DNA from: Candidatus Omnitrophota bacterium
GTDB lineage: Bacteria; Omnitrophota; Gorgyraeia; Gorgyraeales; Gorgyraeaceae
Direction of reading: 5' to 3'
NCBI GenBank assembly: GCA_018902915.1
Contig: JAHIPS010000081.1
Location: 1 to 58,357, forward strand
DNA length: 58,357 nt
The notes under the pieces are model-generated. The model had not been told where the DNA came from. It saw only the letters and a list, made by a program, of their open reading frames with translations, and made no database searches. A program made the position numbers and the translations under genes. The number at the start of each line of letters is the position of its first letter. The first letter of the stretch is position 1. Positions 20,546 to 56,335 of this stretch are shown piece after piece.

Positions 20546-20785
20546 ATGCCAAAACTCATTGTACATCTAATATATCCACAGAAATTAATCAAAGAACCTG
20601 TAATCTACACCATGGCTAAAAAATATGATGTAATCCCGAATATCAGAAGGGCCAAGGTCACAGAGGAAATAGGCGAGATGACACTGGAACTCAACGGCAC
20701 AAAGGAAAACCTTGAGGCCGGCAGAAAGTATTTAGAAAAGACAGGAGTCAAAGTCGAACCAGTCGTAGGAGATATTGTTGAATAA
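20546..20785 (+). CDS. NIL-domain protein
   Basis: 79 aa resembling the MetN C-terminal NIL domain (IVHLIYPQKLIKEPVIY...ANIRRAKV-like pattern). Strong AGGAGGAGG RBS. Confidence 0.65.
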   Translation: MPKLIVHLIYPQKLIKEPVIYTMAKKYDVIPNIRRAKVTEEIGEMTLELNGTKENLEAGRKYLEKTGVKVEPVVGDIVE

Positions 20786-21707
20786 GAGAAAATTGTTGTT
20801 AGGTTGTTTTATTTTTTTAGCGGGAATCTCTTTTGTCGGTTGCAACCGCATGGAAAGCCTGGAGAAGATAGATCTAAGCGATACGGTAGAGTTAGAAGAG
20901 ATAAAATCCCTTCAAAGGCCTGAGATTAATATATGCGTAGGCTCTATGATTACGCCAGAAGAAGGCTACGCATATTACAAGAGACTGCTGGATTATATCG
21001 GGCAGAAACTGCACCTGAAAATAAATTTTGTTGAAAAAAGGACTTATAGAGAAGTGAACTCTTCTTTAAAAAATGGCAATATTGATGTGGCATTTGTATG
21101 TGGCGGGCCGTATGTAATGGGTCATGATGAGTTTGGCTTGGAACTTTTAACTGCTCCAGTGGTAAATGGCAAGCCATTATATTACTCTTATGTTATTGTT
21201 GGAAAGGACAGTAAGATTAATGACCTTCATGGATTAAAGGGAAAGACATTTGCCTTTGTGGACCCGATATCCAATACAGGCAAATTGATCCCTACCTATA
21301 TGTTATATGAATTAGGAGAGACCCCTCAGAGTTTTTTCAAGGAATACTCGTATACCTATGGCCATGACAGATCAATCAAGGCCGTGGCTCAGGGCATAGT
21401 TAATGGGGCAGCTGTTGACAGTCTTATATGGGACTATATGGATAAAAATGGCAGCATCTATACCCAAAAGACAAGTATAATCAAGGTTTCCGAGCCCTAT
21501 GGTATTCCTCCGGTAGTGGTGCGGCCAGGGCTGGATGAGGGCCTAAAAGCAAAAATAAAAGATATTCTGTTGAATATGCATAATAACGAAGAAGGAAAAG
21601 AGATACTTAAGGGCATGTTCATTGATAGATTCATCGAGATAGACGATTCCAGCTATGATACAATAAGACACGTCAGGGAGAGTGTTATAAAAAGAGATCC
21701 TGATTAG
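20775..21707 (+). CDS. PhnD-like (phosphate/phosphonate-type) periplasmic binding lipoprotein
   Basis: TTG start, lipobox FVGC, and PhnD-like GNIDVAFVCGGPYV and FAFVDPISNTG. Confidence 0.7.
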   Translation: MLNKRKLLLGCFIFLAGISFVGCNRMESLEKIDLSDTVELEEIKSLQRPEINICVGSMITPEEGYAYYKRLLDYIGQKLHLKINFVEKRTYREVNSSLKNGNIDVAFVCGGPYVMGHDEFGLELLTAPVVNGKPLYYSYVIVGKDSKINDLHGLKGKTFAFVDPISNTGKLIPTYMLYELGETPQSFFKEYSYTYGHDRSIKAVAQGIVNGAAVDSLIWDYMDKNGSIYTQKTSIIKVSEPYGIPPVVVRPGLDEGLKAKIKDILLNMHNNEEGKEILKGMFIDRFIEIDDSSYDTIRHVRESVIKRDPD

Positions 21708-21716
21708 AGGTAACTT

Positions 21717-23072
21717 GTGAAGAGCATACGGTCAAAACTTATTTTCTGGGTCGCGGTATTGTTTATATTTATAGGCCTGTCTATATATCTGCCTCTTTCG
21801 ATCATACTGCCGGAGAAAATTACGTCCCAGGTCATTAAAAGGGATGTGGATATTGCGAAATTCCTCTCCAATGAAACGAAGAGTCTTTTGCTACTCGACG
21901 ACAAAATTGCACTTTCAATACTCCTGCATGATAATCTGGATAGATTAGAGGATGTGCAGTATTTATTTGTTCGCGGTCCTGAGGAAAAAATAATATCCCA
22001 TACATTTAATAAAGGATTTCCAAAAGGACTTTTGTCATTTAATCCAGGTTCATATCCGCATAGCGTGAAAGGGTTTTTAAGCAATAACAGGCGTCTTTAC
22101 GACATAGCTATACCGATATTAGAAGGAGAGCTGGGAACCCTTCATATGGGCATTTCTTTAGAGTCTGGCAAAAAGGATATCGCGGAGATTGCAAAGATAA
22201 ATTATTATGTAGCGATTGTTATTCTTATAGGTCTAGGCATAGGCATCGTTGTATTTTTAATCATAGGGATTTTATTTTCAAACCAGATCATAAGATTGAA
22301 AAACTTCGCTTCCAGGATCGGAGGCGGGGATTTAGAGGCAAAGATCGACATAAAATCAAAGGACGAGATAGGGGAATTGACAACGGCATTTAATGAAATG
22401 GTCGGGCACTTAAAGGAGAACATACAGGAAATCAAGAGACTAAATACAGTGGAAGAACGTAACAGGATCGCCCTTGACCTGCACGATGGTTGCGCGCAGG
22501 ACCTGGCCAATATTATAAAAAGGATCGAGCTCAGCGAGAGACTTTATAAGATCGACCCTGCGAAGGCTATCGAGGAGCTGGCGTTATTAAGAGAAAGCAC
22601 AAAGGACCTTTTAAACAGGACGCGTCAGGTGATATTTGATCTCAAGTCGCCAGAAGAGACAGATTTTAATATAGTGGATAATTTAAATAGTTATCTCATA
22701 GAGTATAAGAAAAGTAACAACATAGATGTTAATCTAAATATCTCCGGCTCAATAGATGGTATCGTGAACAAAAAATCAGTTTTTTATATCATTCGAGAGG
22801 CGCTTGCCAATGTAAAGAAGCATAGCATGGCAAGAAAAGTGGACCTGAGTTTAGTGGCAAATAATGGCAGCAACCTAAAGATATTTATCAAGGATGACGG
22901 AAAGGGTTTTAATGTAAATCGCACAGAACTATCTGGTTCAAGTTCTGGCAAGTGGGGCCTTGCAGGTATGCGCCAGAGGGCAAGTTCTTTAGGCGGGACA
23001 TTTGTTATTGAGTCTGTACCCGAACAAGGTACAATGGTTTCTATAGATATCCCTCTTAAGGAGAGGAGTTAG
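21717..23072 (+). CDS. sensor histidine kinase (periplasmic domain-TM-HAMP-HisKA_3-HATPase)
   Basis: GTG start. H-box LDLHDGCAQDL, N-box REALANVKKHS, DDGKGF, and GLAGMRQRASSLGG. Confidence 0.85.
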   Translation: MKSIRSKLIFWVAVLFIFIGLSIYLPLSIILPEKITSQVIKRDVDIAKFLSNETKSLLLLDDKIALSILLHDNLDRLEDVQYLFVRGPEEKIISHTFNKGFPKGLLSFNPGSYPHSVKGFLSNNRRLYDIAIPILEGELGTLHMGISLESGKKDIAEIAKINYYVAIVILIGLGIGIVVFLIIGILFSNQIIRLKNFASRIGGGDLEAKIDIKSKDEIGELTTAFNEMVGHLKENIQEIKRLNTVEERNRIALDLHDGCAQDLANIIKRIELSERLYKIDPAKAIEELALLRESTKDLLNRTRQVIFDLKSPEETDFNIVDNLNSYLIEYKKSNNIDVNLNISGSIDGIVNKKSVFYIIREALANVKKHSMARKVDLSLVANNGSNLKIFIKDDGKGFNVNRTELSGSSSGKWGLAGMRQRASSLGGTFVIESVPEQGTMVSIDIPLKERS

Positions 23073-23074
23073 AT

Positions 23075-23728
23075 ATGTCAGATACTATAAGAGTATTTTT
23101 GTGCGATGATCATACGTTGTTTCGGCAGGGCATAAGGAAACTATTAACATTAGAAAATGATATCAAGGTAGTAGGCGAAGCAGATAATGGTCTGGATATG
23201 ATCCCGATGCTGAAGAAAAAAGGGCCTGATGTGATACTGCTGGATATTGGCATGCCTAAAATGGATGGGGTTACTGCTACCTATAAGGTTAAAAAACTCA
23301 TGCCGCATTTGGAAATCATCATCCTCACGGTGTATGAAGACGAGCCGCACATCTTTGAGGCAATTAAGGCAGGCGCAAAGGGATATTTATTAAAGGACGT
23401 TTCCATAGATGACCTTTTAAAGGCGATCCGCAGGGTCTATAAAGGCGAGGCCTTGATTCAGCCTGTAATAGCAGCCAAGGTCTTAAAAGAGTTTGCCATG
23501 CTTGATAAGAGGAAGATAAAAGAAGGCGACAGGTTTTATAACGAGCTGACAGAAAGAGAAAAAGAGATCCTGCGCTTGATCGCACTGGGAGGAGCCAATA
23601 AAGAAATAGCCAAAAAACTCGGAATCGTAGAAAAGACTGTAAAAAACCATATTTCTAATATCTTTCAAACCCTCCATGTCAATAACCGCACCAAGGCCGC
23701 CCTGTACGTCATAGACAAGAAGCTATAG
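23075..23728 (+). CDS. NarL/FixJ-family response regulator
   Basis: Receiver domain (LCDDH...DIGMPKMDG) plus LuxR HTH (LTEREKEILRLIALGGANKEIAKKLGIVEKTVKNHISNIF). Confidence 0.9.
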   Translation: MSDTIRVFLCDDHTLFRQGIRKLLTLENDIKVVGEADNGLDMIPMLKKKGPDVILLDIGMPKMDGVTATYKVKKLMPHLEIIILTVYEDEPHIFEAIKAGAKGYLLKDVSIDDLLKAIRRVYKGEALIQPVIAAKVLKEFAMLDKRKIKEGDRFYNELTEREKEILRLIALGGANKEIAKKLGIVEKTVKNHISNIFQTLHVNNRTKAALYVIDKKL

Positions 23729-29685: not shown

Positions 29686-30510
29686 ATGAAAAATATTTAT
29701 TTACCTCATATAGCTGAAATAGTCGACGTAAAGCAGGAGACATCTGATATAAAGACGTTCACGCTCAGGTTCAAGGATAAGGCAGTTGGGAAGGCCTTTA
29801 CCTATAAACCAGGCCAGTTTGTGGAGTTCTCGATATTTGGCGAGGGTGAATCGCCTTTCTGCATCTCGAATTCGCCCACGAGAGATTCCATAGAATGCAG
29901 TGTCAAGAAAATGGGCAAGGTCACCCAGGTCTTGCATGAGATGGATATAGGCGATGAGGTAGGCATAAGAGGGCCTTACGGCAATGGCTTTCCCCTTGAT
30001 GAATTAAAAGGCAAGAATCTTTTATTTGTTGCCGGCGGAATAGGGCTCGCGCCCTTACGCTCCTTAATAAATTATTGTTTTGATAATAGAAAAGACTATA
30101 AGACTATTACTATCGTGAATGGCGCGCGCACGTCAAAAGACCTTGTCTATAAGGATGAATATAAGACATGGGAAAAGGCAAAGGATGCGCACCTACATTT
30201 AACTGTTGACTGCCAGGAGGATAACTGGACATGCATGGTAGGCGTGGTGCCAAAGATCCTGGAAGAGATAAAACCAACCTGTAAGGACAGCATAGCTATT
30301 GTCTGCGGCCCGCCAATAATGATAAAGTTCACGCTGCCTGTTCTTATGAGATTGGGTTTTTGCCCCGAGTCTATTCTTACTACGTTAGAGATGAAGATGA
30401 AATGCGGCCTGGGTAAATGCGGCAGATGTAATATCGGAAATCTATATATTTGCAAGGATGGACCTGTTTTTAGTTATGCTCAATTAAATGGTATGAACTA
30501 TGATCATTAA
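29686..30510 (+). CDS. FAD/NAD(P)H-binding [2Fe-2S] oxidoreductase subunit (FlxA / AsrB / PyrK-like)
   Basis: FNR-like fold (YKPGQFVEF, LLFVAGGIGLAPL) and C-terminal CGLGKCGRCNIG. Confidence 0.75.
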   Translation: MKNIYLPHIAEIVDVKQETSDIKTFTLRFKDKAVGKAFTYKPGQFVEFSIFGEGESPFCISNSPTRDSIECSVKKMGKVTQVLHEMDIGDEVGIRGPYGNGFPLDELKGKNLLFVAGGIGLAPLRSLINYCFDNRKDYKTITIVNGARTSKDLVYKDEYKTWEKAKDAHLHLTVDCQEDNWTCMVGVVPKILEEIKPTCKDSIAIVCGPPIMIKFTLPVLMRLGFCPESILTTLEMKMKCGLGKCGRCNIGNLYICKDGPVFSYAQLNGMNYDH

Positions 30511-31416
30511 GATTTGGTTAAAAGCCATAAGGGCGCCATTTTTTACCGCGACCATAATCCCGGTTACTCTGGGCTCAGTGATTGCCTGGCATGATACCAA
30601 TGATTTTATGTGGCTGAGATTCTGGCTTACGATGCTTGGTGTGCTGTTTGTGCACACAGGGACAAATCTAGCCAATGATTATTTTGACCATGTCTCTGGA
30701 TGCGATGAGGCAAATTCTACGCCTACGCCTTTTAGCGGAGGAAGCAGGGTGATCCAGAATGGACTTATTGCTCCCAGGAAGATTTTATATGTCTCCCTGG
30801 TCTCATTTATTATTGGCAGCGCAATCGGCCTTTATCTAAATCATTTGTGTAAAGGGAATATAATCCTCGTCTTAGGTATGATCGGTGTATCTTTAGGATT
30901 TTTTATAGCGTCAAGTCATTCCGTATAGGATACGGGGGCTTCGGAGAGATGGCAGTAGGGATTGGCTTTGGTCCGCTGATAGTATTGGGCTCATATTATG
31001 TACAAGCGCAGATTTTACCTTTCAGGATATTCCTGATATCAATCCCTGTCGGCATTTTAATTGCCCTGGTAGTATTCATAAACGAATTTCCAGATTACCT
31101 TGCTGATAAGTCAGCAGGGAAAAGGACTATCGTGGTCAGGCTGGGGAAGAAAAACGCCATGGTTTTATATCATATTCTGTTAGTTAGTGTATATGCGGCC
31201 ATAGTATTTTTAGTAATATTTAAATTTTTACCAGTAGCGTCTTTGATCGTTTTTTTAAGCCTTCCTTTAACTATAAAGGCATTCACAGTGTCCAGGAAAA
31301 ATTTTGACAAGGTTTACGAATTATTACCAGCAAATGCCTCGACTATAGGGCTGCATATGGCAATAGGTGCACTATTATCCATAGGCATAGCGTTAGACAG
31401 GATCTTATGCGCTTAA
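30500..31416 (+). pseudogene. menA: 1,4-dihydroxy-2-naphthoate polyprenyltransferase (UbiA family), split by a frameshift at a T6 run (30899-30904)
   Basis: ORF 30500-30928 gives WLKAIRAPFFTA...NLANDYFD. After the T6 run, the other frame reads YSVKSFRIGYGGFGEMAVGIGFGPL and continues into ORF 30949-31416. One extra T restores a single ORF. Confidence 0.75.
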
Positions 31417-32384
31417 AAGATATCTATAAACCGATCGAGAAAGAACTGATGGGCGTGGAAGACCTATTGAGAGACTCTCTTAATAGCACCACGAATAAAT
31501 CCATATCCCGGGTCTGCAATTATTTATTGGATGCGAAAGGCAAAAGACTCAGGCCGGCCCTGGTTCTGCTGTCAGGTAAGGCCACTAGCGACGCTGCTGT
31601 CGCGACCCCGATACTTATAAAGATCGCCTGCGGCATAGAGCTGATCCATGCTGCTTCTTTGGTCCATGATGATGTAATCGACCATTCCAATCTCCGTCAC
31701 AATAAACCCACGATTAATTTTAAATGGGGCCAGGATCTTTCTATTGCCCTTGGAGACTACCTTTATTCTGTGGCGTATGAATTGATCTCCCAGTGCAACA
31801 ATATAGATATCCTCCAGTGTATAAGTTCTGCCACAAAGGCAATGTGCGAGGGCGAGCTTGTTCAGGTCTCAGAAAGGGATAATCTGGACCTATTAAAGAG
31901 GAGGTACATCGTTATTGTAAAAAAGAAGACAGCCAGCCTTTTTGCCGCGAGCTGCCAGTCAGGCAGCCTGGTTTCTAAAAGCAAAAGATCTTTACAGGTT
32001 GCCATGAAGGCGTATGGCTTGAATTTTGGCATCGGGTTTCAGATAACAGATGATTATCTGGATATCGTGAGCGAGGAAAAGAGATTGGGCAAAAAACCAG
32101 GACAGGATATAAGCGTGGGAGAGATGACCTTACCCTTATTAAATCTATTAAAATCAGTACCGGCACATGAAAAAGAGAAATTTAAGACATTGGTTTCCAA
32201 GGGATCTTTGAATGCGGTGAAGACGAGGCTTATTCATTCCGGGGCAGCAGAAAAGACAAGACAAGAGGTTTCCTCATATATGGGGCTTGCGAAGAAGAGC
32301 TTGGATACTCTACCAGAAACAGTCTTTAAAAGAAGCCTGGTTAATTTAACAGATTTTATAATAGAGAGAAATTTTAACCTGTAA
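31407..32384 (+). CDS. long-chain polyprenyl diphosphate synthase
   Basis: LVHDDVIDHS and FQITDDYLD (two DDxxD motifs). Confidence 0.85.
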   Translation: MRLKDIYKPIEKELMGVEDLLRDSLNSTTNKSISRVCNYLLDAKGKRLRPALVLLSGKATSDAAVATPILIKIACGIELIHAASLVHDDVIDHSNLRHNKPTINFKWGQDLSIALGDYLYSVAYELISQCNNIDILQCISSATKAMCEGELVQVSERDNLDLLKRRYIVIVKKKTASLFAASCQSGSLVSKSKRSLQVAMKAYGLNFGIGFQITDDYLDIVSEEKRLGKKPGQDISVGEMTLPLLNLLKSVPAHEKEKFKTLVSKGSLNAVKTRLIHSGAAEKTRQEVSSYMGLAKKSLDTLPETVFKRSLVNLTDFIIERNFNL

Positions 32385-32405
32385 AAAAAAGGGGGGGGTG
32401 GAAAC

Positions 32406-32804
32406 ATGAAGCTAGATTTGAAGTTAGCTGGCGTAGTTGTTTTGCTTGCCTTGGTTTTCAATGTTTGGACAAGCGAGGCATACGCTAGTTGTGGAGGATG
32501 TGGCGCAGGAGGAGAATCGGTAGATGCAGTGACAGAGGCCTTGCCTGTAAGTTTTAAGGCCGAGGTTATTTGTTTGGGTTGTGCTTTGAAAAAAGGGCAG
32601 GGTGCAAAGACGCAGTGTTCTCTGTACGGACATGTAAATGCACTTAAGAGTGAAGACGGCAGGATCTGGACGATATTGGAGAACGATGCATCTACAGGAC
32701 TTATTAATTCACATGAGTACGCGGGAAAACAGGTTGAGATCACAGGAAAAAAATTCGGCGGCACTCAGATAATAGAAATAGAAAATTTTAAACTTGTAGA
32801 ATAA
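32406..32804 (+). CDS. secreted Cys-rich small protein of unknown function
   Basis: Signal peptide ...WTSEAYA followed by SCGGCGAGG, CLGCALKKGQGAKTQCSLYGH, and a beta-rich C-terminal half. No family recognised. Confidence 0.6.
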   Translation: MKLDLKLAGVVVLLALVFNVWTSEAYASCGGCGAGGESVDAVTEALPVSFKAEVICLGCALKKGQGAKTQCSLYGHVNALKSEDGRIWTILENDASTGLINSHEYAGKQVEITGKKFGGTQIIEIENFKLVE

Positions 32805-32821: not shown

Positions 32822-34138
32822 ATGCGGTTTTTAAGAGTATGTTTGATTTTAATATTCAGTGCAGGAATTATTTTTACATCAGTGCCTGGTTTATATGCTG
32901 ATGAGACAAGCGAGATTATTTTAAAACTTCTTGTGAAAAAAGGCATAATCACCCAGGAAGACGTAGACGAGATAAAAAGCCAGGTGGTGAAAGAAAAATC
33001 ATTGGTACCTCAAGGAATAGAAGAGAGAGTAACATTACTTGAGGAGAAGTCAGAAGAAACAGGATTTCTTTCAGCGAAAGGTTATAAGATTGACGTAAAA
33101 GGCGGGGCAGAGATCGAATTTGTAAACATACAGGATGATGATGCGGGGGTAGCGCTAGATACTACAAGTAGCCCAGATGACTCTGAAAATCCTAGACTCC
33201 AGGTAGATAAAGTTACAATGAGATTTACTGTAACAGGGGAAGATGAGACAGTCGGATTTTCTACTGAGCTGGAAATGGATGAGGGAGATAAGGCCTTTTT
33301 TGACGATGCCTATATTTTTGTAAAAGATTTAGAATGGCTTCAGGCTGCTCACTCGTTTACAGTGGGTTTACAGAATAGGTTTATAGTGCCAAAGCAGATT
33401 TTCGAAAGCTATCCCTTGAATGGATTTGCTTGGTATGAGGACGAAGAATACATGGCACTCTATAAAGGTGAGCATGATGACTGGTTATACTGGTATGGCG
33501 AACTTGCCCGCGCAAATGAAATAGATGACAAGGCGCCAACAGAAAATGGTCAGTTTGAAATGATCCATGACAACAGGCGTACCAGTAATTCTGCAGAGAT
33601 AGGAAATAAATTTGCTGCTGGTGGTGGTCTTGGGCTCAAGCTTAAATTAAAAGATCTTGGGAAGGTTAATATCCTTGGATTTGGCCGTAGTGGAACATTA
33701 ACTGATGATGATGTTTCATTTATGCAGGGTTTAACTGGTTACTCTTCCTCAGAAACAAGCACTGATTATTTGAGGACAGGTGTAAATTTAGATTATAAGC
33801 ATAAAAATTGTGGGTTAAGAGGTCAGTTTATGTATGCAGAGGATGGAACTTTAGACAGAAAGGGTTGGTATATAGAGCCTTACTACAATATTCATGTTGG
33901 TTGGAGGTATTTGGATAGCATAACTCCAGCGGTACAGTTAAGCTGGTTGGATGTTGATCTTGCAAATACGACAGCTGATGCCAGAACTTGGGATCGCGAA
34001 AAGTACACACTTGGAGCAGTATTCAAGATTAACAAGAATCTTCAGTGGAAAAACGAGTACTCAATTAATGAAGAGGATACTGGCGGAGCAGAAGTTGATA
34101 ACAATGAATTTATTAGTCAGTTGAAATTTAGTTTCTAA
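32822..34138 (+). CDS. outer-membrane porin-like beta-barrel protein (phosphate-selective porin O/P-like)
   Basis: Signal peptide, an N-terminal helical segment (ILKLLVKKGIITQEDVDEIKSQV), alternating beta-strand pattern and the C-terminal motif ...QLKFSF. Confidence 0.6.
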   Translation: MRFLRVCLILIFSAGIIFTSVPGLYADETSEIILKLLVKKGIITQEDVDEIKSQVVKEKSLVPQGIEERVTLLEEKSEETGFLSAKGYKIDVKGGAEIEFVNIQDDDAGVALDTTSSPDDSENPRLQVDKVTMRFTVTGEDETVGFSTELEMDEGDKAFFDDAYIFVKDLEWLQAAHSFTVGLQNRFIVPKQIFESYPLNGFAWYEDEEYMALYKGEHDDWLYWYGELARANEIDDKAPTENGQFEMIHDNRRTSNSAEIGNKFAAGGGLGLKLKLKDLGKVNILGFGRSGTLTDDDVSFMQGLTGYSSSETSTDYLRTGVNLDYKHKNCGLRGQFMYAEDGTLDRKGWYIEPYYNIHVGWRYLDSITPAVQLSWLDVDLANTTADARTWDREKYTLGAVFKINKNLQWKNEYSINEEDTGGAEVDNNEFISQLKFSF

Positions 34139-34269: not shown

Positions 34270-35118
34270 TTGACTGAATATAAAATTTTTACACATCTTT
34301 CATATGACTGGATGATTGTCAGCTATTTTTTTCTTGGTGGTTTAGCTGCTGGCGCGTACTTTTTTTCAGTAGCGGCAAATTATTGGATAAAGGAGTTTAA
34401 GTCACTGGCAAAGACAGCAGCGATTTTGACTCCTATAGCGCTTGCCATTGGACTGGCATTTCTCCTGCTTGATCTAGGACAGCCATTTAGGTCCTGGCGA
34501 ATTTTCCTGCATTTCAATCCTACCTCGGCTATTTCATATGGCATCTGGTTTTTAAATATTTTCTTCATCCTGAGTTTGGTCTATGCGTGGTTTACCTCAA
34601 GAGGTGAAAACGAGAAGGCAAAAAAGTTTGCCTATCTTGGCTTGCCTTTTGGTTTATTAGTAGCTATATATACAGGCGTACTTTTGGCTCAGGCGCCGGG
34701 CAAGGCATTGTGGCATTCTGCGCTTTTGCCAGTACTATTTCTTATAGGAGGAGTAATTTCCGGCATTGCATTGGTGATGCTGGTTTCTTCAGGCGCAGCA
34801 GAAAAAGCAGTTTCGGTTAAAGTCGGTAGACTTCTCGTCGGGCTTCTTTTAGTTGAATTAGGACTGATTTTAACGGAACTTATTATTCTTGCTAATGGAG
34901 ACGCTGAGGCCATAATGACAGTCAAAGTGATTTTGACAGGCCAGTATAGTTTTTTGTTCTGGATAGTAGAGATCCTCCTTGGAGCCATAATACCGATATT
35001 TATTCTTTTTAAGACTGAGGTATCCTCCAGGGCTCAAGCAGTGGCTGCAATGCTTATTTTAGTGGGGATATTTGCGATGCGTTTTATTATAGTAGTCGGT
35101 GGGCAGATTGTTAGTTAA
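34270..35118 (+). CDS. NrfD/PsrC-type quinol-interacting membrane subunit
   Basis: 282 aa with about 8 TM helices. N-terminal W..VSYFFLGGLAAGAYF is typical of NrfD family. TTG start. Confidence 0.8.
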   Translation: MTEYKIFTHLSYDWMIVSYFFLGGLAAGAYFFSVAANYWIKEFKSLAKTAAILTPIALAIGLAFLLLDLGQPFRSWRIFLHFNPTSAISYGIWFLNIFFILSLVYAWFTSRGENEKAKKFAYLGLPFGLLVAIYTGVLLAQAPGKALWHSALLPVLFLIGGVISGIALVMLVSSGAAEKAVSVKVGRLLVGLLLVELGLILTELIILANGDAEAIMTVKVILTGQYSFLFWIVEILLGAIIPIFILFKTEVSSRAQAVAAMLILVGIFAMRFIIVVGGQIVS

Positions 35119-35136
35119 AAAGTGAGAGGTGAACCA

Positions 35137-36018
35137 ATGGCAAAGGCTCATAATGATAAGAAGACGTTAGTTGTAGAGAAAGGGATTACCCGCCGGCAGT
35201 TTTTTAAGTTGGGGGGAGCTGGCGTAGCAGCTGCGGCTGTTAGTATGATTGCCGGTGAAGTCTCTGCTTCAGAAAGTTCGTTAAAGGGTAAAAGGCTCGC
35301 TATGGTGATCGACCTTCAGGGGTGCACTGGATGTGGTGGATGCATGATATCCTGTAAGAACGAGAACAATGTACAGGAAGGCGTTGCCTGGTCCTATAAA
35401 AAAAGCAGCACTACTGGTACATTTCCTAACGTAAGATATGAATATATTCCTACGTTGTGTAATCATTGTGAGAAGGCGCCGTGCGTTAGGGCTTGTCCTA
35501 CAGGGGCTATGCAAAAGATAGATGGCGACATAACCATGCATGATCCAGAGAAATGCATAGGTTGCAAGACTTGTATTGCCATGTGCCCGTATGGAGTGAT
35601 CTCCCGTAACTCAAAAAGGACTCACGGGTTCTGGAGAAAAGACAAGGCCTTGATAAAGGGTTGCACTGAATCGCCTAAAGAGGTCGTGAAAAAGGTCAAA
35701 GGAACAGTCGTTCCTTATTATAATCCGGATAGAGAAAAAAATATTAAGGGATCAGGTTTAAGATATAAAGGTATTGTGGAGAAGTGCACTTTCTGTGACC
35801 ACAGGGTAAAAAGAGGAAAATTGCCATACTGTGTCTTGAGGTGCCCGGCGCAGGCGAGGATATTCGGAGACCTGAATGATACTAAGAGTAAGGTGAATGA
35901 GATCCTTGGAAAGTACAAGCCGATGAGACTCAAGGAACATCTTGGAACAGAACCCAAAGTGTTTTATGTAAGAGACTATAATCCCGGTAATTATAAAAGA
36001 AGTTATGGAAGTATCTAG
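35137..36018 (+). CDS. 4x[4Fe-4S] electron-transfer subunit with its own twin-arginine signal
   Basis: ITRRQFFKLGGAGVAAAA; CTGCGGCMISC, CNHCEKAPCVRACP, CIGCKTCIAMCP and CTFCDHR...CVLRCP. Confidence 0.85.
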   Translation: MAKAHNDKKTLVVEKGITRRQFFKLGGAGVAAAAVSMIAGEVSASESSLKGKRLAMVIDLQGCTGCGGCMISCKNENNVQEGVAWSYKKSSTTGTFPNVRYEYIPTLCNHCEKAPCVRACPTGAMQKIDGDITMHDPEKCIGCKTCIAMCPYGVISRNSKRTHGFWRKDKALIKGCTESPKEVVKKVKGTVVPYYNPDREKNIKGSGLRYKGIVEKCTFCDHRVKRGKLPYCVLRCPAQARIFGDLNDTKSKVNEILGKYKPMRLKEHLGTEPKVFYVRDYNPGNYKRSYGSI

Positions 36019-36038
36019 GTAAAAAAGGAGGACGAGAG

Positions 36039-38630
36039 ATGGACACGAAGAATAGTAAAATGACCCGTAGAGATTTCGTAAAAAGCGCTGTGCTTACAGG
36101 CGCAGCTGTCGCAGTCGGCTCTAATCTTAAACCGGCATTAAGGGCTTTTGCGGCAACAGCTGAGCCCCCATTTACTGAATCCGGGAAATGGAAACCAACT
36201 ACATGTCAGGGGTGTACTTCCTGGTGTTCTGTGCAGGCGTATGTAGTGGATGGAAGGGCTATAAAGGTAAGAGGCAACCCGAATTCCAAGGTAAATGGAA
36301 AGGCTGGTTGTCCCCGCTCGCATATGTCTCTCCAGCAGGTCTATGACCCTGACAGGATCAAGGTCCCGATGAAGAGGACCAATCCTAAAAAAGGTAAAAA
36401 TGAGGATCCTGGATTTGTCCCTATATCATGGGATGAGGCGCTTAATACGATTGCTGACAAGATAATGGAGCTCAGGAACGCCGACGAGACATATAAATAT
36501 ATGCTTATGAGAGGCAGATATTCATATATGCGGGACATACTCTATGATCGCATGACCAAGATCATAGGTTCTCCCAATAATATCTCCCACAGCGCAATCT
36601 GCGCCGAGGCAGAAAAATTTGGACCTTATTATACAGAAGGATTATGGGATTATAGGCAATACGATATTAAAAACACCAGATATGTAATTTTGTGGGGAGC
36701 TGATCCTATTTCAGCCAACAGGCAGGTTTCCTATTATCTGAGTGAATGGGGCGATATGCTTGACAGGGCGCAGGTAGCTGTCATAGATCCGAGATTGTCT
36801 GCTACTGCTACTAAGGCGGATGAATGGTTGCCTATTAAGCCTGGTCAAGACGGGGCATTGGCTTCTGCAATGGCTCATGTAATTCTGACTGAGGGCCTGT
36901 GGTACAAGGACTTTGTCGGAGATTTTGATGTAAACTCTCCTGTAAAAAAGTTTGAGAAGGACAAGACAATACCAGAAGAATTTGCTTCTACCCAGTCTGA
37001 CGGCAGCACGTTAAATTCACAAACTTTCAAGGAAAAATACACGCATGGCCTTATTAAGTGGTGGAATATAGAGCTTTATGATAAAACACCGGAGTGGGCA
37101 GAAAAGAGGACTGGCATAACGGCTGATCAAATAAGAAGAGTAGCGATAGGATACGGAAAAGCAGCGCCGCATGCTATTTGCTGGGTCGGTGGCGGTCCGG
37201 TTATGCAGGTCAGAGGCGGGTATACTAGCATGGCTGCGCATGCCTTAAATGGACTTGTTGGTTCAGTGGATAATGTAGGCGGGACACTCCAGGCCAATAA
37301 AGAGTATACGAAAGCATTTCCAAAACCAGATGACTTCATGGATGATATAGCAAAGGAAGGCAAAAAGCATAAGAAGATAGACCATAGAGGGAGAAAGGAA
37401 TTCCCGAGCCTTAAGAAAGGAAAACCAGGTTCAGCGGTTGTTACCAACAGGGCAGCGGATGGGATATTGAACGAAGACCCTAGTGAAATAAAGGTTGCGA
37501 TAGGCTACATGAATAACTTTGCATTTTCATGTCCTGGCTCAGAAAGATGGGAAAAGGCCTTGAGTAAGATCCCTTTTCTCGTCCATATTACCACGCATGC
37601 AGCAGAATTTACGTGGTTTTCTGATATAGCGCTGCCTTCCACTCATCATATGTTCGAGAAATGGGGATGGGTGAAGTCACACGGTAATGGATATCGCCAC
37701 GTTACTCTGCTACAGCCAGTGAATGATAGAGTGTGGGATGTGAAGACAGACGAAACCGAGATACCATGGCTTATAGCTGAAAAGCTTGCGCAAAGAGGAT
37801 TTGATAACTTATTGCGCCACTACAAGGAATACAAGGATCCGGAAACTGGTAAGGCGCCTACCAATGAAAAAGAGTTTGCCCTTTACGCGCTTAAATATGC
37901 CACTGAGAAACTCTGGGATCCTTCTAAATATGAAGGCGGAGATAAGTTAAGCGGCTGGCAGGAACTTGTAGAAAAGGGCGTTTGGAATTCAGACCCTTAC
38001 CCCTATAAAAAGAGATGGGGAAAGATGAAGACCAAGACCGAGAAGTTCGAGTTTTATAGCGAGACACTAAAAGAGGCCCTGACCGCGCACGCAGAAAAAC
38101 ATAATACCAGCACAGATGATATACTTTCTACTTGTAACTACCAGGCCAGGGGTGAGAAGGCATTTGTTCCACACTACGAGGAGCCGGTTACGTGGGGCAG
38201 CAAAAAAGAATATCCGTTTGTTCTGGTTGATTACAAGTCCAGGCTTAACAGGGAAGGCAGGTCTGCTAATTGTTCGTGGTATCAGGAATTTAAGGATATT
38301 GACCCTGGGGATGAGGCATGGAATGACGTGGCCAAGATAAATCCTGTGGATGCAAAGGCATTAGGGATAAGGGATGGCGCCAGGATCAAGTTGACATCCA
38401 AGATAGGAGAGATCGAGTGCACCGCGAAGTTATGGGAAGGTGCGCGCCCCGGAACCATTGCAAAGTGTTATGGACAGGGGCACTGGGCTTATGGTAAGCT
38501 GGCAGCTAAGAGGTTTGGTAAAGTGCCCAGAGGAGGAAACAATAATCAAATAATCCCTGCTGATTACGATCGCCTGAGCGGTTCCACAGCGTTTTATGGA
38601 TTGGCAAGGATTAAGGTCAGTAGGGCATAG
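36039..38630 (+). CDS. Tat-exported Mo-bisPGD catalytic subunit, ArrA/ArxA-like by motif spacing (Psr/Phs/Ttr superfamily)
   Basis: MTRRDFVKSAVLTGAAVAVG; C56-x2-C59-x3-C63-x27-C91; RGRY at 158-161; H184-S185-x2-C188-x4-K193. 863 aa. The Mo-bisPGD family assignment is high confidence; the Arr/Arx subtype is moderate. Confidence 0.7.
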   Translation: MDTKNSKMTRRDFVKSAVLTGAAVAVGSNLKPALRAFAATAEPPFTESGKWKPTTCQGCTSWCSVQAYVVDGRAIKVRGNPNSKVNGKAGCPRSHMSLQQVYDPDRIKVPMKRTNPKKGKNEDPGFVPISWDEALNTIADKIMELRNADETYKYMLMRGRYSYMRDILYDRMTKIIGSPNNISHSAICAEAEKFGPYYTEGLWDYRQYDIKNTRYVILWGADPISANRQVSYYLSEWGDMLDRAQVAVIDPRLSATATKADEWLPIKPGQDGALASAMAHVILTEGLWYKDFVGDFDVNSPVKKFEKDKTIPEEFASTQSDGSTLNSQTFKEKYTHGLIKWWNIELYDKTPEWAEKRTGITADQIRRVAIGYGKAAPHAICWVGGGPVMQVRGGYTSMAAHALNGLVGSVDNVGGTLQANKEYTKAFPKPDDFMDDIAKEGKKHKKIDHRGRKEFPSLKKGKPGSAVVTNRAADGILNEDPSEIKVAIGYMNNFAFSCPGSERWEKALSKIPFLVHITTHAAEFTWFSDIALPSTHHMFEKWGWVKSHGNGYRHVTLLQPVNDRVWDVKTDETEIPWLIAEKLAQRGFDNLLRHYKEYKDPETGKAPTNEKEFALYALKYATEKLWDPSKYEGGDKLSGWQELVEKGVWNSDPYPYKKRWGKMKTKTEKFEFYSETLKEALTAHAEKHNTSTDDILSTCNYQARGEKAFVPHYEEPVTWGSKKEYPFVLVDYKSRLNREGRSANCSWYQEFKDIDPGDEAWNDVAKINPVDAKALGIRDGARIKLTSKIGEIECTAKLWEGARPGTIAKCYGQGHWAYGKLAAKRFGKVPRGGNNNQIIPADYDRLSGSTAFYGLARIKVSRA

Positions 38631-38643
38631 AGACGGGAGCTAG

Positions 38644-39240
38644 TTGAAAACAGAAGAAACTTTACTACATGAAAATGCTCGCGCTGAGCAGTACAAGTTT
38701 CTATCGGAATGTTATCATGCACCTGATGAGAAACTGATAGAGATGCTGTGCTCAAGGAAGGATTCTGTTCAGGACTTGCTTAAAAACATTCCGACTATTG
38801 ATGATCTCGAGCAATTAAAAATTGAATACTCAAGGCTTTTTCTTGGGCCATTTAAAGTCCTTGTGCCACCCTATGGTTCTGTGTATCTTGAACATGAGAG
38901 AAGGGTCATGGGTGAATCAACCATAGATGTGAAGAGGTGGTATGAGAAGGAAAAGCTCGATATATTGATTAGAGAGGTCCCGGATCACATAGCCATAGAA
39001 TTGGAGTTTATGTATCTCCTTGTTTTTAAGCAAATAGAGGCAACCAAAGACTCTGATTCTGTCGGTGCCTGGAATTATCAGAAAAAACAGGCTTCTTTTT
39101 TGAATACCCATCTGGGAAAGTGGGCCCCTGAATTTTCTGAAAAGTTGGAGGCAAGCGCCAGAAACGGGTTTTACAAAAATTTAGCCCGGTACACGAGATT
39201 ATTTGTCGAAGAAGACGCAAAAGGCCTATCGACCTTATAG
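38644..39240 (+). CDS. TorD/DmsD-family molybdoenzyme chaperone
   Basis: TTG start. YSRLFLGPFKVLVPPYGSVYLE and PDHIAIELEFMYLL are typical of TorD-like proteins. Confidence 0.75.
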   Translation: MKTEETLLHENARAEQYKFLSECYHAPDEKLIEMLCSRKDSVQDLLKNIPTIDDLEQLKIEYSRLFLGPFKVLVPPYGSVYLEHERRVMGESTIDVKRWYEKEKLDILIREVPDHIAIELEFMYLLVFKQIEATKDSDSVGAWNYQKKQASFLNTHLGKWAPEFSEKLEASARNGFYKNLARYTRLFVEEDAKGLSTL

Positions 39241-39267
39241 TGCTGATTGAAGAAGGGGGTGGATCGA

Positions 39268-39666
39268 ATGAGCAATAAGTCAAAGATCCTGATTATCGAC
39301 GACGATCCGGATATTTCAGAGGCGATGAAGGTAGTTCTGGAGAGTAAGCAATATCAGGTCGCTACTGCCAAGACCGGGGAACAGGGCCTGAAAAAAGTAA
39401 AACAGGAAAAGCCGGATCTTGTCATACTGGACGTCATGATGGAAACACAGGGCAAGGGTTTTGACGTCGCAAGGGCTATTAAAGGAGACGAAGATACCAA
39501 AGACACTCCTATCCTTATGCTCACAGCTGTCAAAGAAAAGACAGGATTGGATTTCAAGAAAGAGGCAGGCGATGATGCCTGGCTTCCAGTTGACGCTTAT
39601 CTTGACAAACCGCTCAAACCCGAAGAATTGATTTCAAAGGTCGGACTGCTTTTAGGAAAGAGTTAG
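39268..39666 (+). CDS. single-domain (CheY-like) response regulator
   Basis: KILIIDDDPD...DLVILDVMM...PILMLTA...K. ATG 39268 has an upstream GGGGGTGG RBS. Confidence 0.85.
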   Translation: MSNKSKILIIDDDPDISEAMKVVLESKQYQVATAKTGEQGLKKVKQEKPDLVILDVMMETQGKGFDVARAIKGDEDTKDTPILMLTAVKEKTGLDFKKEAGDDAWLPVDAYLDKPLKPEELISKVGLLLGKS

Positions 39667-39679
39667 AATATAAGATGTT

Positions 39680-40993
39680 ATGGAGAGCTTGAATTCGCGT
39701 GAGGGTCTCTTTGAAAGGATCCATTGGCTCATTAAGCTGCGATGGATAGCTGTTACAGGGGTCTTTCTGTCTGTATTCATAGCAGTTAATGTACTCAAGA
39801 TTCCTGTTCCAGATATACCTTTATATGCTATAGCGCTTATACTCGGGATATATAATCTCACATCCCTTGTCTATGTAAACAGGTCAAGGGCGAATTTTCC
39901 CGCACTAGCCAACAGGATCGCCAATACGCAGATAGCCATTGATCTTTTTATCCTTGCCAGCCTCGTGCATTTTTCCGGAGGCATAGAGAATCCTTTTATA
40001 TTTTATTTTATCTTTCATATGATCATCGCGAGCATACTTCTTTCGCGGCGCGCATCTTTCCTACAGGCCACGTTCGCGGTCATATTGTTTTCCATGATGG
40101 TGGCCTTAGAGTATCTTGGGATCTTGCCACATTATTGTTTAGTTGGGTTTGTTTCCTCTGATCTCCACAACAATGCTATTCACATTAGCGGCATAGCCTT
40201 TGTTTTTGTTTCTACCTTGTATATAGCAGTGTATATGGCCACGTCTATTTCAAGGAGATTAAGAGAACGCGAGGCAAGTTTAAAAGAGGCAAACGCACTT
40301 TTAAAGCAGAAGGACAGAATAAAAAGCGAGTATGTCTTAAGAGTTACACATGATATAAAGGAACACCTGGCAGCGATCCAGAGCTGTATCGAGCCGGTAA
40401 CAGGCGGCATAGTGGGTTCACTCAATGAAAAACAAATGAACCTGCTCCAGAGGGCTGATGAACGCGCGGGAAAACTCATGTTTTTTGTAAAGGCACTATT
40501 AGAGGTCACGAGCATAAAATTGAGTAAAGAGATCCGCATGGGACATTTTGATTTTAGCGACATGCTGAAAGACGCCATCCATACTATTGCGCGCAAGGCA
40601 GGAAACAAAAACATATTCCTCAGCTCCACTGTGGAACCTGGCATACAGAAGATACGTGGGGCCAGGGAATATATACAGGAACTTATCTCAAACCTTTTGG
40701 CAAATTCCGTGAAATACACGCCCCGCAATGGAAAGGTAGATATCGATGTTATTGATAAAGGCAATTCTATTCTTATACAGATTAAGGACACCGGCATAGG
40801 AATACCTGGGGAGGAGCTATCAAAGGTATTTGACGAGTTTTACAGGGCATCCAATGCCAGGGAAATCGAAAAAGACGGCACAGGTCTGGGGCTTTCAATA
40901 GCAAAGCAGGTGGTGGCTAGGCACAATGGAAAGATCTGGGTAGAGTCAGTCCAGGGCAAAGGCACCACGTTCTTTATAATGTTACCTAAATAG
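39680..40993 (+). CDS. polytopic sensor histidine kinase
   Basis: About 6 N-terminal TM helices, H-box [11 protein letters not shown]-box [17 protein letters not shown] and GTGLGLSIA. Confidence 0.85.
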
Positions 40994-53780: not shown

Positions 53781-54215
53781 ATGAGAGGTTTTATATTTTT
53801 ATTTTTCTTATTTTTTATTTTAGCGCCTAATCTTATAGCTGAAGAAAATGTTTCAGATAATATGGACTATCTCGGTGTGTATTATTTTCGCAGTAATTTC
53901 CGCTGTAGCAACTGCTATAAGATAGAAGAATACACGAAAGAATCTGTAGAAGGATTCTTCGAAAAAGAACTGTCTTCGGGTGAACTGGTTTACAAAGTTA
54001 TAAATATTGATGAAAAAGAAAATAGTCATTTTATTGAGGGTTATCAGCTTTACACAAAATCAGTGGTGCTTTCTAGGGTAGTAAGCGGGGAAGAAACAGA
54101 GTACAAGAATCTTCAAAAGATCTGGGAATACCTTGATGATAAAGACAAATTTCGTAACTACATAAAAGAAGAAATAAATAGTTTCTTGCATAAGAAAAAA
54201 GAAGAGGAAATATGA
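53781..54215 (+). CDS. secreted thioredoxin-like CxxC protein
   Basis: Signal peptide, then FRCSNCYKIEEY. Translationally coupled to the CcdA-like gene. Confidence 0.5.
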   Translation: MRGFIFLFFLFFILAPNLIAEENVSDNMDYLGVYYFRSNFRCSNCYKIEEYTKESVEGFFEKELSSGELVYKVINIDEKENSHFIEGYQLYTKSVVLSRVVSGEETEYKNLQKIWEYLDDKDKFRNYIKEEINSFLHKKKEEEI

Positions 54216-54889
54216 TATTTATTTCTGCATTGTGGTTAGGAATACTTGCTTCAATAAGCCCATGCCCTCTTGCTAGTAACATTGAAGCTGTCTCATTTTT
54301 ATCCAAAAAGATCACGCGTCCAAAGATTGTGTTGTCGACAGGTATGGCTTACACGCTTGGTCGCATGATTAGTTATGCACTAGTAGGCTCTATTATTGTA
54401 ATGTCGCTTGTAAGCGTGCCGATTGTGGCTAATTTTCTTCAGAAATATATGAATAGAATAATGGGACCTATTCTTCTCATTGTAGGGTTTTTTCTCCTGG
54501 ATATTATAAGGTTTAATATACCGAGAATTTCTTGTTCCCAGAGAACAAAGGAAAGTATGGCGAATTCTGGAGCCAAGGGAGCGTTCACACTCGGTGTAAT
54601 ATTCGCGCTTTCATTTTGTCCTATATCCGCGGCACTATTCTTTGGCAGTTTAATTCCCATGGCTTTAAATAACAGTTGCGGTATTGCGCTGCCTTTTATT
54701 TATGGTCTAGGCACAGGTCTTCCGGTTGTTGTTTTTTCTTTAGGTATAGCCCTGGGAGTGAAGTCTTTTTCATATTGGTTTTCTAAAGTGAAGCAATTCG
54801 AGCCGTATGCAAGGAAGGTTACAGGAGGAATATTTATTCTTGTCGGCCTGTATTACATATGGGCATATATTCTTGTTGGAATGTTTTAG
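54212..54889 (+). CDS. CcdA/DsbD-family transmembrane thiol:disulfide electron transporter
   Basis: 225 aa, 6 TM helices. Conserved Cys-Pro motifs ASISPCPLASN and LSFCPISAALF. Confidence 0.7.
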   Translation: MIFISALWLGILASISPCPLASNIEAVSFLSKKITRPKIVLSTGMAYTLGRMISYALVGSIIVMSLVSVPIVANFLQKYMNRIMGPILLIVGFFLLDIIRFNIPRISCSQRTKESMANSGAKGAFTLGVIFALSFCPISAALFFGSLIPMALNNSCGIALPFIYGLGTGLPVVVFSLGIALGVKSFSYWFSKVKQFEPYARKVTGGIFILVGLYYIWAYILVGMF

Positions 54890-54898
54890 GGGGCATCA

Positions 54899-55975
54899 GT
54901 GGAAACAGTTGTTCACGAAGAGCGTGGGTTAAGTTTTTTTGAGAAATATCTCACTATATGGGTGATCGCCTGTATTGGTATAGGGATTTTGCTTGGGAAA
55001 TTATTTCCACAGGTCGCTGTCAAACTGGACAGTATCTCGATTTATCAGGTATCAATACCCATAGCAATATGTCTTTTTTTCATGATGTATCCTATCATGG
55101 TGAAGATCGATTTTAGAGAGGTTATTAAGGCAGGTAAGGCGCCCAAGCCAGTTCTTCTTACATTATTTGTCAACTGGTGCATCAAGCCGTTCACCATGCT
55201 TTTTATAGCCAGTTTATTTTTAGGCGTATTTTTTAAGAAAATGCTTCCTGGTTTTGAGATAGTTAGGGGAGGACAGGAGGTAGAATTATACCGGTCTTAT
55301 ATTTCAGGGTGTATATTACTGGGTATTGCGCCGTGCACAGCCATGGTGCTTATCTGGGGACATCTATCTAAAGGTAATGACGGCCACACCCTGGTCATGG
55401 TGGCAATAAATTCCCTGACCATGCTTTTTCTTTATGCGCCTTTAGGCGGCTGGCTTTTGGGCGTGAACAAGATGCCTATTCCATGGCAGACGATCGTACT
55501 TTCGGTCGTGATGTATGTGGGTGTGCCGCTTTTTCTGGGCTATCATACGCGAAAATGGATTATTGCCAGGAAAGGCCTTAAGTGGTTTCAAGAGAAATTC
55601 ATTCGTTATCTAACTCCGGTCTCAATCACTGCATTACTTTTTACGCTCATTCTTTTATTTTCATTTAAAGGAGAGCTGATTATCAATCAACCCCAGACAA
55701 TAGTCTTAATCGCGATCCCGCTTTTTATCCAGACCTGTCTAATATTTGGCCTGACCTATGCACTGGCAAGGTGGCTCAAGCTTCCATACATGGATGCTGC
55801 GCCATCTGCATTGATAGGAGCGAGCAATCATTTTGAAGTAGCTATTGCCACTTCCACAGTGCTCTTTGGCCTTTCTTCAGGCGCATCCCTGGCAACAGTA
55901 GTAGGGGTATTAATAGAGGTACCAGTCATGCTGATGTTGGTGAAGGTATGTTTACGGACTCGACATCTATTTTAG
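54899..55975 (+). CDS. acr3: ACR3-family arsenite efflux permease
   Basis: [23 protein letters not shown] and the conserved Cys in GIAPCTAMV. 10 TM helices. GTG start. Confidence 0.85.
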
Positions 55976-55999
55976 AAAGGTATTATTTTTTTATTCCCC

Positions 56000-56029: not shown

Positions 56030-56049
56030 TGTAATGGGAGGATAATGAT

Positions 56050-56334: not shown

Positions 56335-56335
56335 A

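Follow-up and report, generated by a model that had tools for sequence, protein, structure and literature searches.

A predicted exported OB-fold protein with a conserved Cys3-His motif in the arsenate-respiration island of a Candidatus Omnitrophota bacterium

Locus and Gene Structure

In this work, we analyzed a gene for a 132-amino-acid protein in a Candidatus Omnitrophota bacterium of the family Gorgyraeaceae (GenBank assembly GCA_018902915.1, contig JAHIPS010000081.1). The whole stretch of DNA that was analyzed, hereafter the window, comprises positions 1 to 58,357 of this contig (58,357 nucleotides). The gene (32406..32804 on the + strand, stop codon included) lies between genes for a polyprenyl synthase and a porin, shortly upstream of an arsenate respiratory reductase (arr) gene cluster. 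Its product is predicted to be an exported protein with an oligonucleotide/oligosaccharide-binding (OB) fold and a motif of three cysteines and one histidine (Cys3-His), and it has relatives in several bacterial phyla. We tentatively favor the reading that these proteins contain a periplasmic thiolate module for soft metal(loid)s or thiol stress, one copy of which may have been captured into the arsenate-respiration island of this lineage.

The open reading frame (ORF) is a genuine gene and not a chance ORF. The + strand was taken as coding because of the homologs of its product (19 close ones) and the codon-position pattern: in comparisons with four orthologs, third codon positions are the richest in changes (e.g., 12/14/32 and 22/23/59 by position). 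Two antisense ORFs overlap the gene (32234..32764 and 32424..32633, both on the − strand). A purine-rich (A/G) ribosome-binding stretch, aaaggggggggtgg (32388..32400, + strand), could be read from the sequence 5–17 nt before the ATG at 32406. The gene is present as a single copy in the genome and is separated by 21 nt from the stop of the polyprenyl synthase gene (32384) and by 17 nt from the next gene (32822). The length, coordinates, neighbors, and 21-nt gap given in the original prediction, which had been made from the DNA letters and their ORFs, were all confirmed. Promoter and terminator scans, whose counts match those of shuffled controls (29 vs. 28.8 and 14 vs. 11.6), placed no + strand terminator between 32018 and 34443. 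Co-transcription of the gene with both neighbors appears plausible.

Protein Features and Conserved Residues

The first 27 residues (32406..32486, + strand) have the features of a Sec-type signal peptide, namely, a lysine-rich n-region, the hydrophobic segment LAGVVVLLALVF, and the sequence AYA|S, with cleavage predicted after AYA. AlphaFold2 modeled the signal region as a helix (residues 5–22), and the relatives retain the A-x-A, with S, G, N, or H standing between it and the first cysteine. Tat-like (twin-arginine translocation) signals were found in 5 of 164 relatives with a loose regular expression. The mature protein has approximately 105 residues, none of which is methionine. The product contains the motifs SCGGCG, at the start of the mature protein, and CLGCALKKGQGAKTQCSLYGH, which holds a second CxxC and a lone cysteine. 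These motifs, the secretion, and the lack of a haem motif are in line with the original prediction. Two other classes were considered and rejected. A lipoprotein is not indicated, since the residue preceding Cys29 is S, G, N, or H across the relatives, after A-x-A, and there is no lipobox (L-[AS]-[GA]-C). A haem protein or c-type cytochrome is not indicated either, since neither CGGCG nor CLGCA is followed by a histidine and no CxxCH is thus formed.

Residues 28–44 (32487..32537, + strand) form a flexible mature N-terminal tail with the pair C29-G-G-C32. The predicted local distance difference test (pLDDT) scores of the AlphaFold2 model are 56–59 for residues 21–40, and the linker 23–44 is of low confidence. 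A tail of the CGGCG type is present in the arr-linked clade described below and in the loci L004, L024, and L022, where it resembles HCGxCG or CGACSAC and stands in contexts other than arr; it is absent from L021, L023, and the proteins P0016–P0018. The N-terminal CGGCG pair is neither a feature of the family nor specific to the arr-linked clade.

Residues 45–132 (32538..32801, + strand) constitute a domain that was confidently modeled as an OB fold, with five strands and helical inserts (AlphaFold2, VIA-align). The AlphaFold2 run, based on an alignment of 148 sequences, gave a mean pLDDT of 86.8, with 96–98 for the 10-residue blocks from 51 to 130 and 91 for the last two residues. In the model, the strands are located at residues 45–56, 78–82, 87–91, 109–117, and 122–130, and a helical insert (57–65 and 71–74) between strands 1 and 2 carries the conserved Cys/His motif. 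The original prediction had described the C-terminal half as OB-like; the fold stands, but its extent does not, as the domain spans residues 45–132 and the CxxC…C lies within the β1–β2 insert.

The motif in this insert, C56-x2-C59-x11-C71-x4-H76 (32571..32633, + strand), was evaluated by running a profile of the close homologs over the 168 proteins collected; 170 domains were recovered, spread over 166 of them. The three cysteines are conserved in 163 (C56), 160 (C59), and 163 (C71) domains, and position 76 is occupied by a histidine (146) or a cysteine (18) in 164. Other well-kept positions are G85 (151), N93 (128), S96 (133), L99 (151), and G114 (158); H103 is kept in only 44. The expectation that the CxxC and the lone cysteine are conserved was therefore borne out. 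The tri-thiol site proposed earlier stands as to its three cysteines, but it is not a bare tri-thiol, given the conserved fourth position, and the CGGCG pair is variable. Based on the motif spacing and the His/Cys exchange at position 76, C56, C59, C71, and H76 would form one putative four-ligand thiolate site; such an exchange at one position is as expected of a metal ligand.

Sequence and Structural Similarity

No family in Pfam (2025 copy) or NCBIfam (June 2026) was found for the 132-aa protein. At E ≤ 1, Pfam returned noise plus DUF5818, the latter with 12.9 bits (curated cut-off 27; E = 0.083). At E ≤ 0.1, 16 of the 148 relatives match DUF5818 and 16 match DUF4431 (best E-values 1.4e-4 and 1.4e-3, respectively), and these matches are confined to the C-terminal strands (approximately residues 80–126), outside the Cys3-His insert. 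DUF5818 and DUF4431 are small uncharacterized β domains, and a distant kinship of the C-terminal strands with them is possible from this sub-threshold likeness. Neighbors in the ESM Atlas (0.84–0.89) pointed to DUF6370 and DUF5818 as leads, with DUF5818 clusters being the nearest named ones (0.84–0.87); the DUF6370 profile had no match in this genome at E ≤ 10. In addition, the C-terminal strands (query approximately 81–122) have eight and six matches in the giant proteins P0094 (2100 aa) and P0156 (2747 aa), respectively, so that the β3–β5 unit is found in repeated form as well.

No PDB sequence matched at E ≤ 10 in a profile search, and neither model had a Foldseek row against PDB at E ≤ 0.001. 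The best Foldseek rows are CusF and SilF (E 0.016–0.06 over both models; in one of the two runs, E 0.028–0.06 with a target-normalized template modeling score of 0.54–0.57), which is a generic likeness at the level of the OB fold. With VIA-align, an exhaustive structural alignment that warns that Z-scores below 8 are common, the top matches are the N-terminal domains of NigD-like/DUF1344 lipoproteins (Z 7.5–8.0; root-mean-square deviation 1.9–2.8 over 64–69 residues), followed by SSB/PriB (Z 6.7–6.8), potempins, the C-terminal domain of NlpE (6.1–6.2), and the OB domains of MCM and RPA (5.8–6.1). The CusF-like C-terminal domain of SilB and YgiW are lower (5.3–5.7, with SilB at 5.7). These matches support only an OB fold and nothing narrower. 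A thioredoxin-fold CxxC oxidoreductase (ResA/TlpA/DsbE) was rejected, as the model is an OB fold and no thioredoxin-family profile matches; proteins of the ResA/TlpA type are neighbors of the homologs (see below), not homologs themselves. In line with the original prediction, no family was recognized by the profile or structure searches (Pfam, NCBIfam, PDB, and Foldseek). The titles and abstracts of the literature searched gave no account of the domain or of DUF6370, DUF5818, or DUF4431, and the family appears undescribed in these libraries and this literature.

Comparisons with the nearest folds help to place the domain. As is predicted for the window protein, the Cu(I)/Ag(I) chaperones CusF and SilF (PDB 2qcp, 1zeq, and 8bbz) are small, Sec-exported, periplasmic OB-fold proteins. 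They handle soft metals, which for the window protein is only a proposal. The metal site of CusF consists of His-Met2 plus Trp, whereas the mature window protein has no methionine and its conserved residues are Cys3-His, in an insert that CusF lacks. Moreover, the window protein has no match to the CusF_Ec Pfam family even at E ≤ 1, nor any PDB sequence match at E ≤ 10. The NigD-like/DUF1344 lipoproteins of Bacteroidota (PDB 3k6o, 3k0y, and 4pqx) share only 7–13% identity with the window protein and are lipoproteins that contain a further domain but no Cys3-His motif; no Pfam match links the window protein to them.

These comparisons bear on the possibility that the motif is purely structural. 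Cys3-His and Cys4 sites in which His and Cys interchange are a typical feature of structural zinc, and such an ion would here only staple the β1–β2 insert, leaving the OB surface to bind a peptide, a glycan, or an envelope partner. On this view, neither metals nor arsenite would be the ligand of the protein. OB folds with Zn-binding inserts (MCM and RPA) are among the structural matches, and further well-kept residues (G85, N93, S96, L99, and G114) are located outside the site. Furthermore, NigD1 and NigD2 belong to the regulon of ECF21, a sigma factor with extracytoplasmic function (ECF), and one of the top fold matches is an ECF-regulon member of unknown function, according to PMC10927553. 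Nevertheless, we consider this explanation unlikely in view of the fusions and gene neighbors of the family, which follow.

Family Distribution, Domain Fusions, and Gene Neighborhoods

In a library of 1.84 billion, we found 172 related representatives at E ≤ 1e-3, 39 at E ≤ 1e-10, and four at E ≤ 1e-30. As these representatives stand for clusters at 50% identity, the family comprises at least 172 clusters. It carries at least seven phylum-level labels (Omnitrophota, Planctomycetota, Zixiibacteriota, Pseudomonadota, Myxococcota, Acidobacteriota, and Ignavibacteriota) and is sparse within phyla: members were detected in 4 of the 400 genomes searched in the window's phylum and in 2 of 401 from the class to which another family-bearing genome, G400, belongs.

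Several domain fusions were identified among the 148 relatives at E ≤ 1e-4. Fourteen have an N-terminal zf-HC2 anti-sigma domain; in these proteins, the OB domain is therefore the extracytoplasmic end. Beyond the lineage of the window, the domain occurs either in this form or as a protein of its own. Fusions with metal-binding domains are also present (seven with HMBD, two with YHS, and one with HMA). Among 164 relatives, 55 have a C-terminal tail that contains at least three Cys/His residues and is either His-rich or of the WCDHCKGMDAC type. Four relatives carry the domain twice, in tandem. The role in binding a soft metal or another thiophilic ligand that had been suggested from the window alone would fit these fusions and tails.

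The neighborhoods were compared across 47 loci outside the window, including 16 from species genomes, 29 from metagenomes, and two from a search of the phylum. Six of these loci are syntenic with the window and are described in the next section. Among the 41 non-syntenic loci, 32 were scanned with Pfam; the other nine were dropped before annotation, either as duplicate ORF layouts (L034, like L033; L037, like L036; L041–L044, like L012; and L045, like L015) or because they are very short (L035 and L038). Four of the 32 scanned loci (L007, L025, L026, and L029) have no annotated neighbor, which leaves 28.

Thiol-redox genes (DsbD_TM, AhpC-TSA/Redoxin, Thioredox_DsbH, or a fused thioredoxin) are present in 18 of these 28 loci, an ECF sigma factor gene in 12, and either of the two in 23. 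The DsbD_TM and redoxin neighbors are of the DsbD-core (CcdA) and ResA/TlpA types, and DUF255 thioredoxins are also found among the neighbors. The layouts observed include sigma–antisigma–family protein–CcdA–ResA and family protein–CcdA–ResA–sigma. In L021, the homolog is preceded by a 257-aa gene for an RsrA-like anti-sigma factor, and a permease 3.3 kb upstream resembles the SO_0444 Cu/Zn efflux transporters. A gene for a Fur-family regulator is adjacent to, or one gene off, the homolog in L004 and L024. Genes for desulfoferrodoxin, a peroxiredoxin, a flavodiiron protein, and cation efflux surround the homolog of L004, and genes for a thiol peroxidase and a rubrerythrin lie near that of L022. 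The HMBD/YHS/HMA fusions, the Cys/His-rich tails, and the adjacent disulfide-reductase genes are easier to explain by functional, reduced thiols than by a structural zinc.

The same contexts raise the possibility of a thiol-disulfide redox sentinel. By analogy with envelope-stress sensors, the cysteines might cycle between redox states, or act as a Zn-thiolate switch, and report periplasmic stress to anti-sigma factors, in which case the window protein would be a stand-alone remnant. The 14 relatives in which the domain forms the C-terminal part of an anti-sigma factor, the ECF sigma genes in 12 loci, and the Fur-family (L004 and L024), peroxiredoxin/desulfoferrodoxin (L004), and thiol-peroxidase/rubrerythrin (L022) genes are consistent with this idea. 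The C-terminal OB domain of NlpE, the sensor of the Cpx envelope-stress response (PDB 2z4h), has a redox-sensing role; it resembles the model in fold, at the Z-scores given above, and is likewise a cysteine-bearing periplasmic OB domain linked to envelope stress signaling. However, there is no sequence relation, and NlpE is a lipoprotein that feeds a two-component system, whereas the family studied here sits with or in ECF anti-sigma factors. Periplasmic metal sensing for ECF sigma factors is known from CnrX, which acts with CnrY/CnrH, and from the cysteines of NrsF in Caulobacter. The logic is similar, with metal or thiol sensing in or beside an anti-sigma factor in the periplasm, but the folds and sequences are unrelated and the window copy has no sigma/anti-sigma pair. 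Metal ligation accounts for an odd number of conserved cysteines with His or Cys at a fourth position better than a disulfide does. The host is a groundwater bacterium of the anaerobe type, whose window encodes Hdr, Arr, and neelaredoxin, and no cognate anti-sigma factor is encoded near the gene. A redox sentinel is thus quite unlikely in our judgment.

Linkage to the arr Genes

Synteny was scored by tblastn with the window's own neighbor genes. Six of the 47 loci (L001, L002, L003, L018, L019, and L020) have the polyprenyl synthase upstream, the N-terminus of the porin downstream, or both, and the homologs in all six share no less than 71% identity with the window protein. Only L003, on a contig of the genome G389, is long enough to reach arrC–arrB, which it does. 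None of these neighbor genes was found in the other 41 loci, including L021–L024 with homologs of 50–65% identity, and none of the 32 non-syntenic loci scanned with Pfam has a molybdopterin oxidoreductase. In a maximum-likelihood tree of 32 domain sequences, the six arr-linked sequences form one clade (support 100/98). This clade sits beside L021/L023, which have the sigma–antisigma–domain–CcdA–ResA layout, and the oxidative-stress-linked L022; the tree gives no order among them. These patterns show a single origin of the arr linkage, in one narrow clade. Residues that are invariant in this clade and rare elsewhere are P47, E83, R86, S102, and E104 plus G33 in the N-terminal tail; none of them is at the Cys3-His site.

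Within the phylum, 400 genomes were searched, including the genome of the window itself (G000). The four with family members are G000 and G389, which belong to the same taxonomic family, and G150 and G162, in which the copies are without the cysteines. These degenerate relatives, both from Omnitrophota, lack the CxxC and the third cysteine (L056 5298–5780 in G150 and L057 5369–5854 in G162), and each lies before a TonB_C gene. A close ArrA was found in three of the 400 genomes, namely, G000, G389, and G360, of which the first two carry the gene. Taxonomically, G360 falls in the same class but a different family, and it has an ArrA with 79% identity to that of the window. Its cluster has the order menA–polyprenyl synthase–octahaem cytochrome c–Porin_5 porin–arrB–arrA–arrD and lacks arrC, and its genome has no family member. 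With an octahaem cytochrome at the position of the gene, the slot is therefore variable, and the gene does not co-occur with arrAB across the arr clusters of the three ArrA-bearing genomes. The octahaem c-type cytochrome of G360 (Multi-haem_cyto, 3e-30) is encoded at L053 10279–11697 on the minus strand, between the polyprenyl synthase and the porin. The presence of this cytochrome and the absence of arrC suggest that the electron input in G360 may be cytochrome-based and not NrfD-based. Finally, eight genomes that carry the family but lie outside the arr clade (G400, G401, G402, G528, G150, G162, G803, and G804) gave no ArrA-grade match, the best score being 235 bits in G803, as compared with 1265 bits in G000 as the positive control.

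The original prediction had proposed that the protein carries a substrate or product for the adjacent molybdoenzyme. As a dedicated Arr accessory protein, it would be a working part of this respiratory complex, its tri-thiol site delivering arsenite, or a different substrate or product such as polysulfide, to ArrAB or the porin or taking it from them. The tight spacing on the same strand as arrCBAD (21 nt after one neighbor and 17 nt before the next) is consistent with this idea, as is the polyprenyl synthase–gene–porin order in six of the 47 loci, which runs into arrC–arrB in L003/G389. Three conserved cysteines would also suit As(III), as in the S3 As(III) sites of ArsR and ArsD; no sequence relation to either protein was found in Pfam or NCBIfam. 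On the other side, the six syntenic loci are all close kin from one clade, the other 32 scanned loci have no molybdoenzyme, the eight other family-bearing genomes have no ArrA-grade match, and the site residues are the same as in the sisters outside arr. In addition, the G360 cluster has the same flanks and an octahaem cytochrome in place of the gene. We therefore consider a dedicated carrier very unlikely, and the gene is not a general or conserved component of Arr. The arr-specific part of the prediction was mostly not borne out: at the level of the family, the homologs are widespread and unlinked to molybdoenzyme operons, so that a constant association with Arr/Psr-like operons did not emerge from the neighborhood survey.

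Other Genes of the Island

The gene cluster downstream, arrC–arrB–arrA–arrD (34270..39240, + strand), was assigned by profile matches to an NrfD-type anchor, an iron-sulfur (FeS) subunit, a catalytic subunit, and a TorD-type chaperone, respectively. ArrA matches NF041714 with 1265 bits (cut-off 1600; next family 242 bits), and ArrB matches NF041715 with 292 bits (cut-off 450). The window ArrA aligns end to end with Shewanella ArrA (PDB 6cz7; 1098 bits) and contains RGRY and HSAICAEAEK, which we take to be ArrA-type motifs. Judging from these sequence matches, the adjacent enzyme is of a genuine ArrA type. The cluster ends with genes for a response regulator that has only a receiver domain and a histidine kinase whose six-helix membrane domain is PilS-like (39247–40993), and this pair is conserved in G389 with 84% and 78% identity.

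The polyprenyl diphosphate synthase gene (31407..32384, + strand) was identified by Pfam (polyprenyl_synt, 1.5e-66) and by its synteny in L001–L003, L018, and L020. The porin gene (32822..34138, + strand) encodes a 438-aa outer-membrane-type protein that ends with …KFSF and has no match in Pfam or NCBIfam. Its N-terminal 78 aa are 65% identical to a Porin_5-type porin of G389. The Porin_5-type porins of G389 and G360 (L054 2116–3348 and L053 8814–10088) are 62% identical to each other, and only these N-terminal 78 residues are common to them and the window porin; the barrel seems to have been exchanged while the periplasmic N-terminal helix was kept. G389 also has an extra gene for a 228-aa protein resembling outer-membrane proteins before arrC.

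Upstream of the gene are HdrCBA-like genes, genes for sulfhydrogenase-like subunits, menA, and the polyprenyl synthase gene. The menA gene (1,4-dihydroxy-2-naphthoate prenyltransferase; 30500–31416) is split into two ORFs with a break near 30899–30905, because a T-run is one base shorter than in L003 (T6 vs. T7); this is either a frameshift or a homopolymer assembly error. It is intact (312 aa) in L002, L003, and G360. Just upstream of hdrCBA (20775–23725), a gene for a PhnD-like periplasmic binding protein is followed by those for a histidine kinase (NarQ-like) and a response regulator (NarL-type), a trio that presumably resembles the three-component oxyanion sensors AioXSR/ArxXSR. Farther downstream are tatC, molybdenum-cofactor genes, and genes for a formate dehydrogenase and for ArsF-like, ArsG-like (DsbD_2-type), and Acr3 proteins. 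An ArsF-family protein, an ArsG-family permease (DsbD_2-like, 4e-16), an Acr3 arsenite pump, and a TolC-type protein are encoded in a row at 53781–57586; the window therefore has a second arsenic module. A neelaredoxin gene is also present in the window.

Possible Functions and Implications

The reading that we favor is that the arr island took up, in a single event, a periplasmic thiolate module for soft metal(loid)s or thiol stress, with arsenite as a plausible ligand. We hold it tentatively, with the doubts at least balancing the support. The thiolate-site part is based on the use of the domain at the ends of anti-sigma factors, the fused soft-metal modules, the disulfide-reductase neighbors, and the Cys3-His/Cys site itself. 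According to this proposal, the Sec-exported OB-fold protein, with its Cys-x2-Cys tail and its putative Cys3-His site in the β1–β2 insert, would bind a thiophilic metal(loid) ion through reduced cysteines, or react with thiol-directed stress, and the domain would serve as a periplasmic buffer or sentinel. One copy of the family would have been captured once into the arsenate-respiration island of this lineage, where ArrAB would release arsenite, a thiophilic species, in the periplasm, so that the local role could be the buffering or sensing of arsenite. Metal binding, the identity of the ligand, and the link to arsenite are what we infer here. An arsenite-related role in the arr clade is possible; it is plausible because ArrAB makes arsenite in the same compartment and the window encodes Acr3, and a function as arsenite buffer or sentinel would be chemically reasonable.

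Several points weigh against this proposal. Arsenite takes three thiolates, and the conserved fourth His or Cys suggests a tetrahedral ion such as Zn, which could be purely structural; an S3N or S4 site is not the preference of As(III). Structural comparison returned, at best, generic OB folds with Z ≤ 8. No radical residue change sets the arr clade apart. No gene for an ECF sigma factor, an anti-sigma factor, CcdA, or ResA adjoins the window copy, and a single query of this genome, which is 86% complete, did not recover an anti-sigma factor of the L021 type. Moreover, many of the loci compared are kin (L005/6/27/28, L011/12/33/40, L013/16, and L021/23), and the neighborhood counts consequently overstate the independent support.

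A more specific version may also be considered. The window protein could be the stand-alone form of an undescribed OB Cys3-His sensor domain that, through zf-HC2 anti-sigma factors, gates ECF sigma factors in response to thiophilic metal(loid)s and requires reduction by CcdA/ResA. The arr copy would then be a derivative that binds arsenite and, in the periplasm, buffers or reports what arsenate respiration produces. We regard this version as somewhat unlikely.

Most of what is known about how thiophilic ions are handled in the periplasm comes from Met/His chaperones, CusF among them, and a few sensors. For a periplasmic OB domain devoted to soft-metal or thiol stress, we rate the ligand set and the recurring anti-sigma/reductase context as the new aspects. 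For annotation, position alone is no ground for naming the gene an Arr subunit. If the thiolate-module reading is correct, the Cys3-His OB domain at the ends of anti-sigma factors and beside disulfide reductases would represent an unnamed envelope-stress/metal-sensing module, and some arsenate respirers may protect or monitor their periplasm against their own product.

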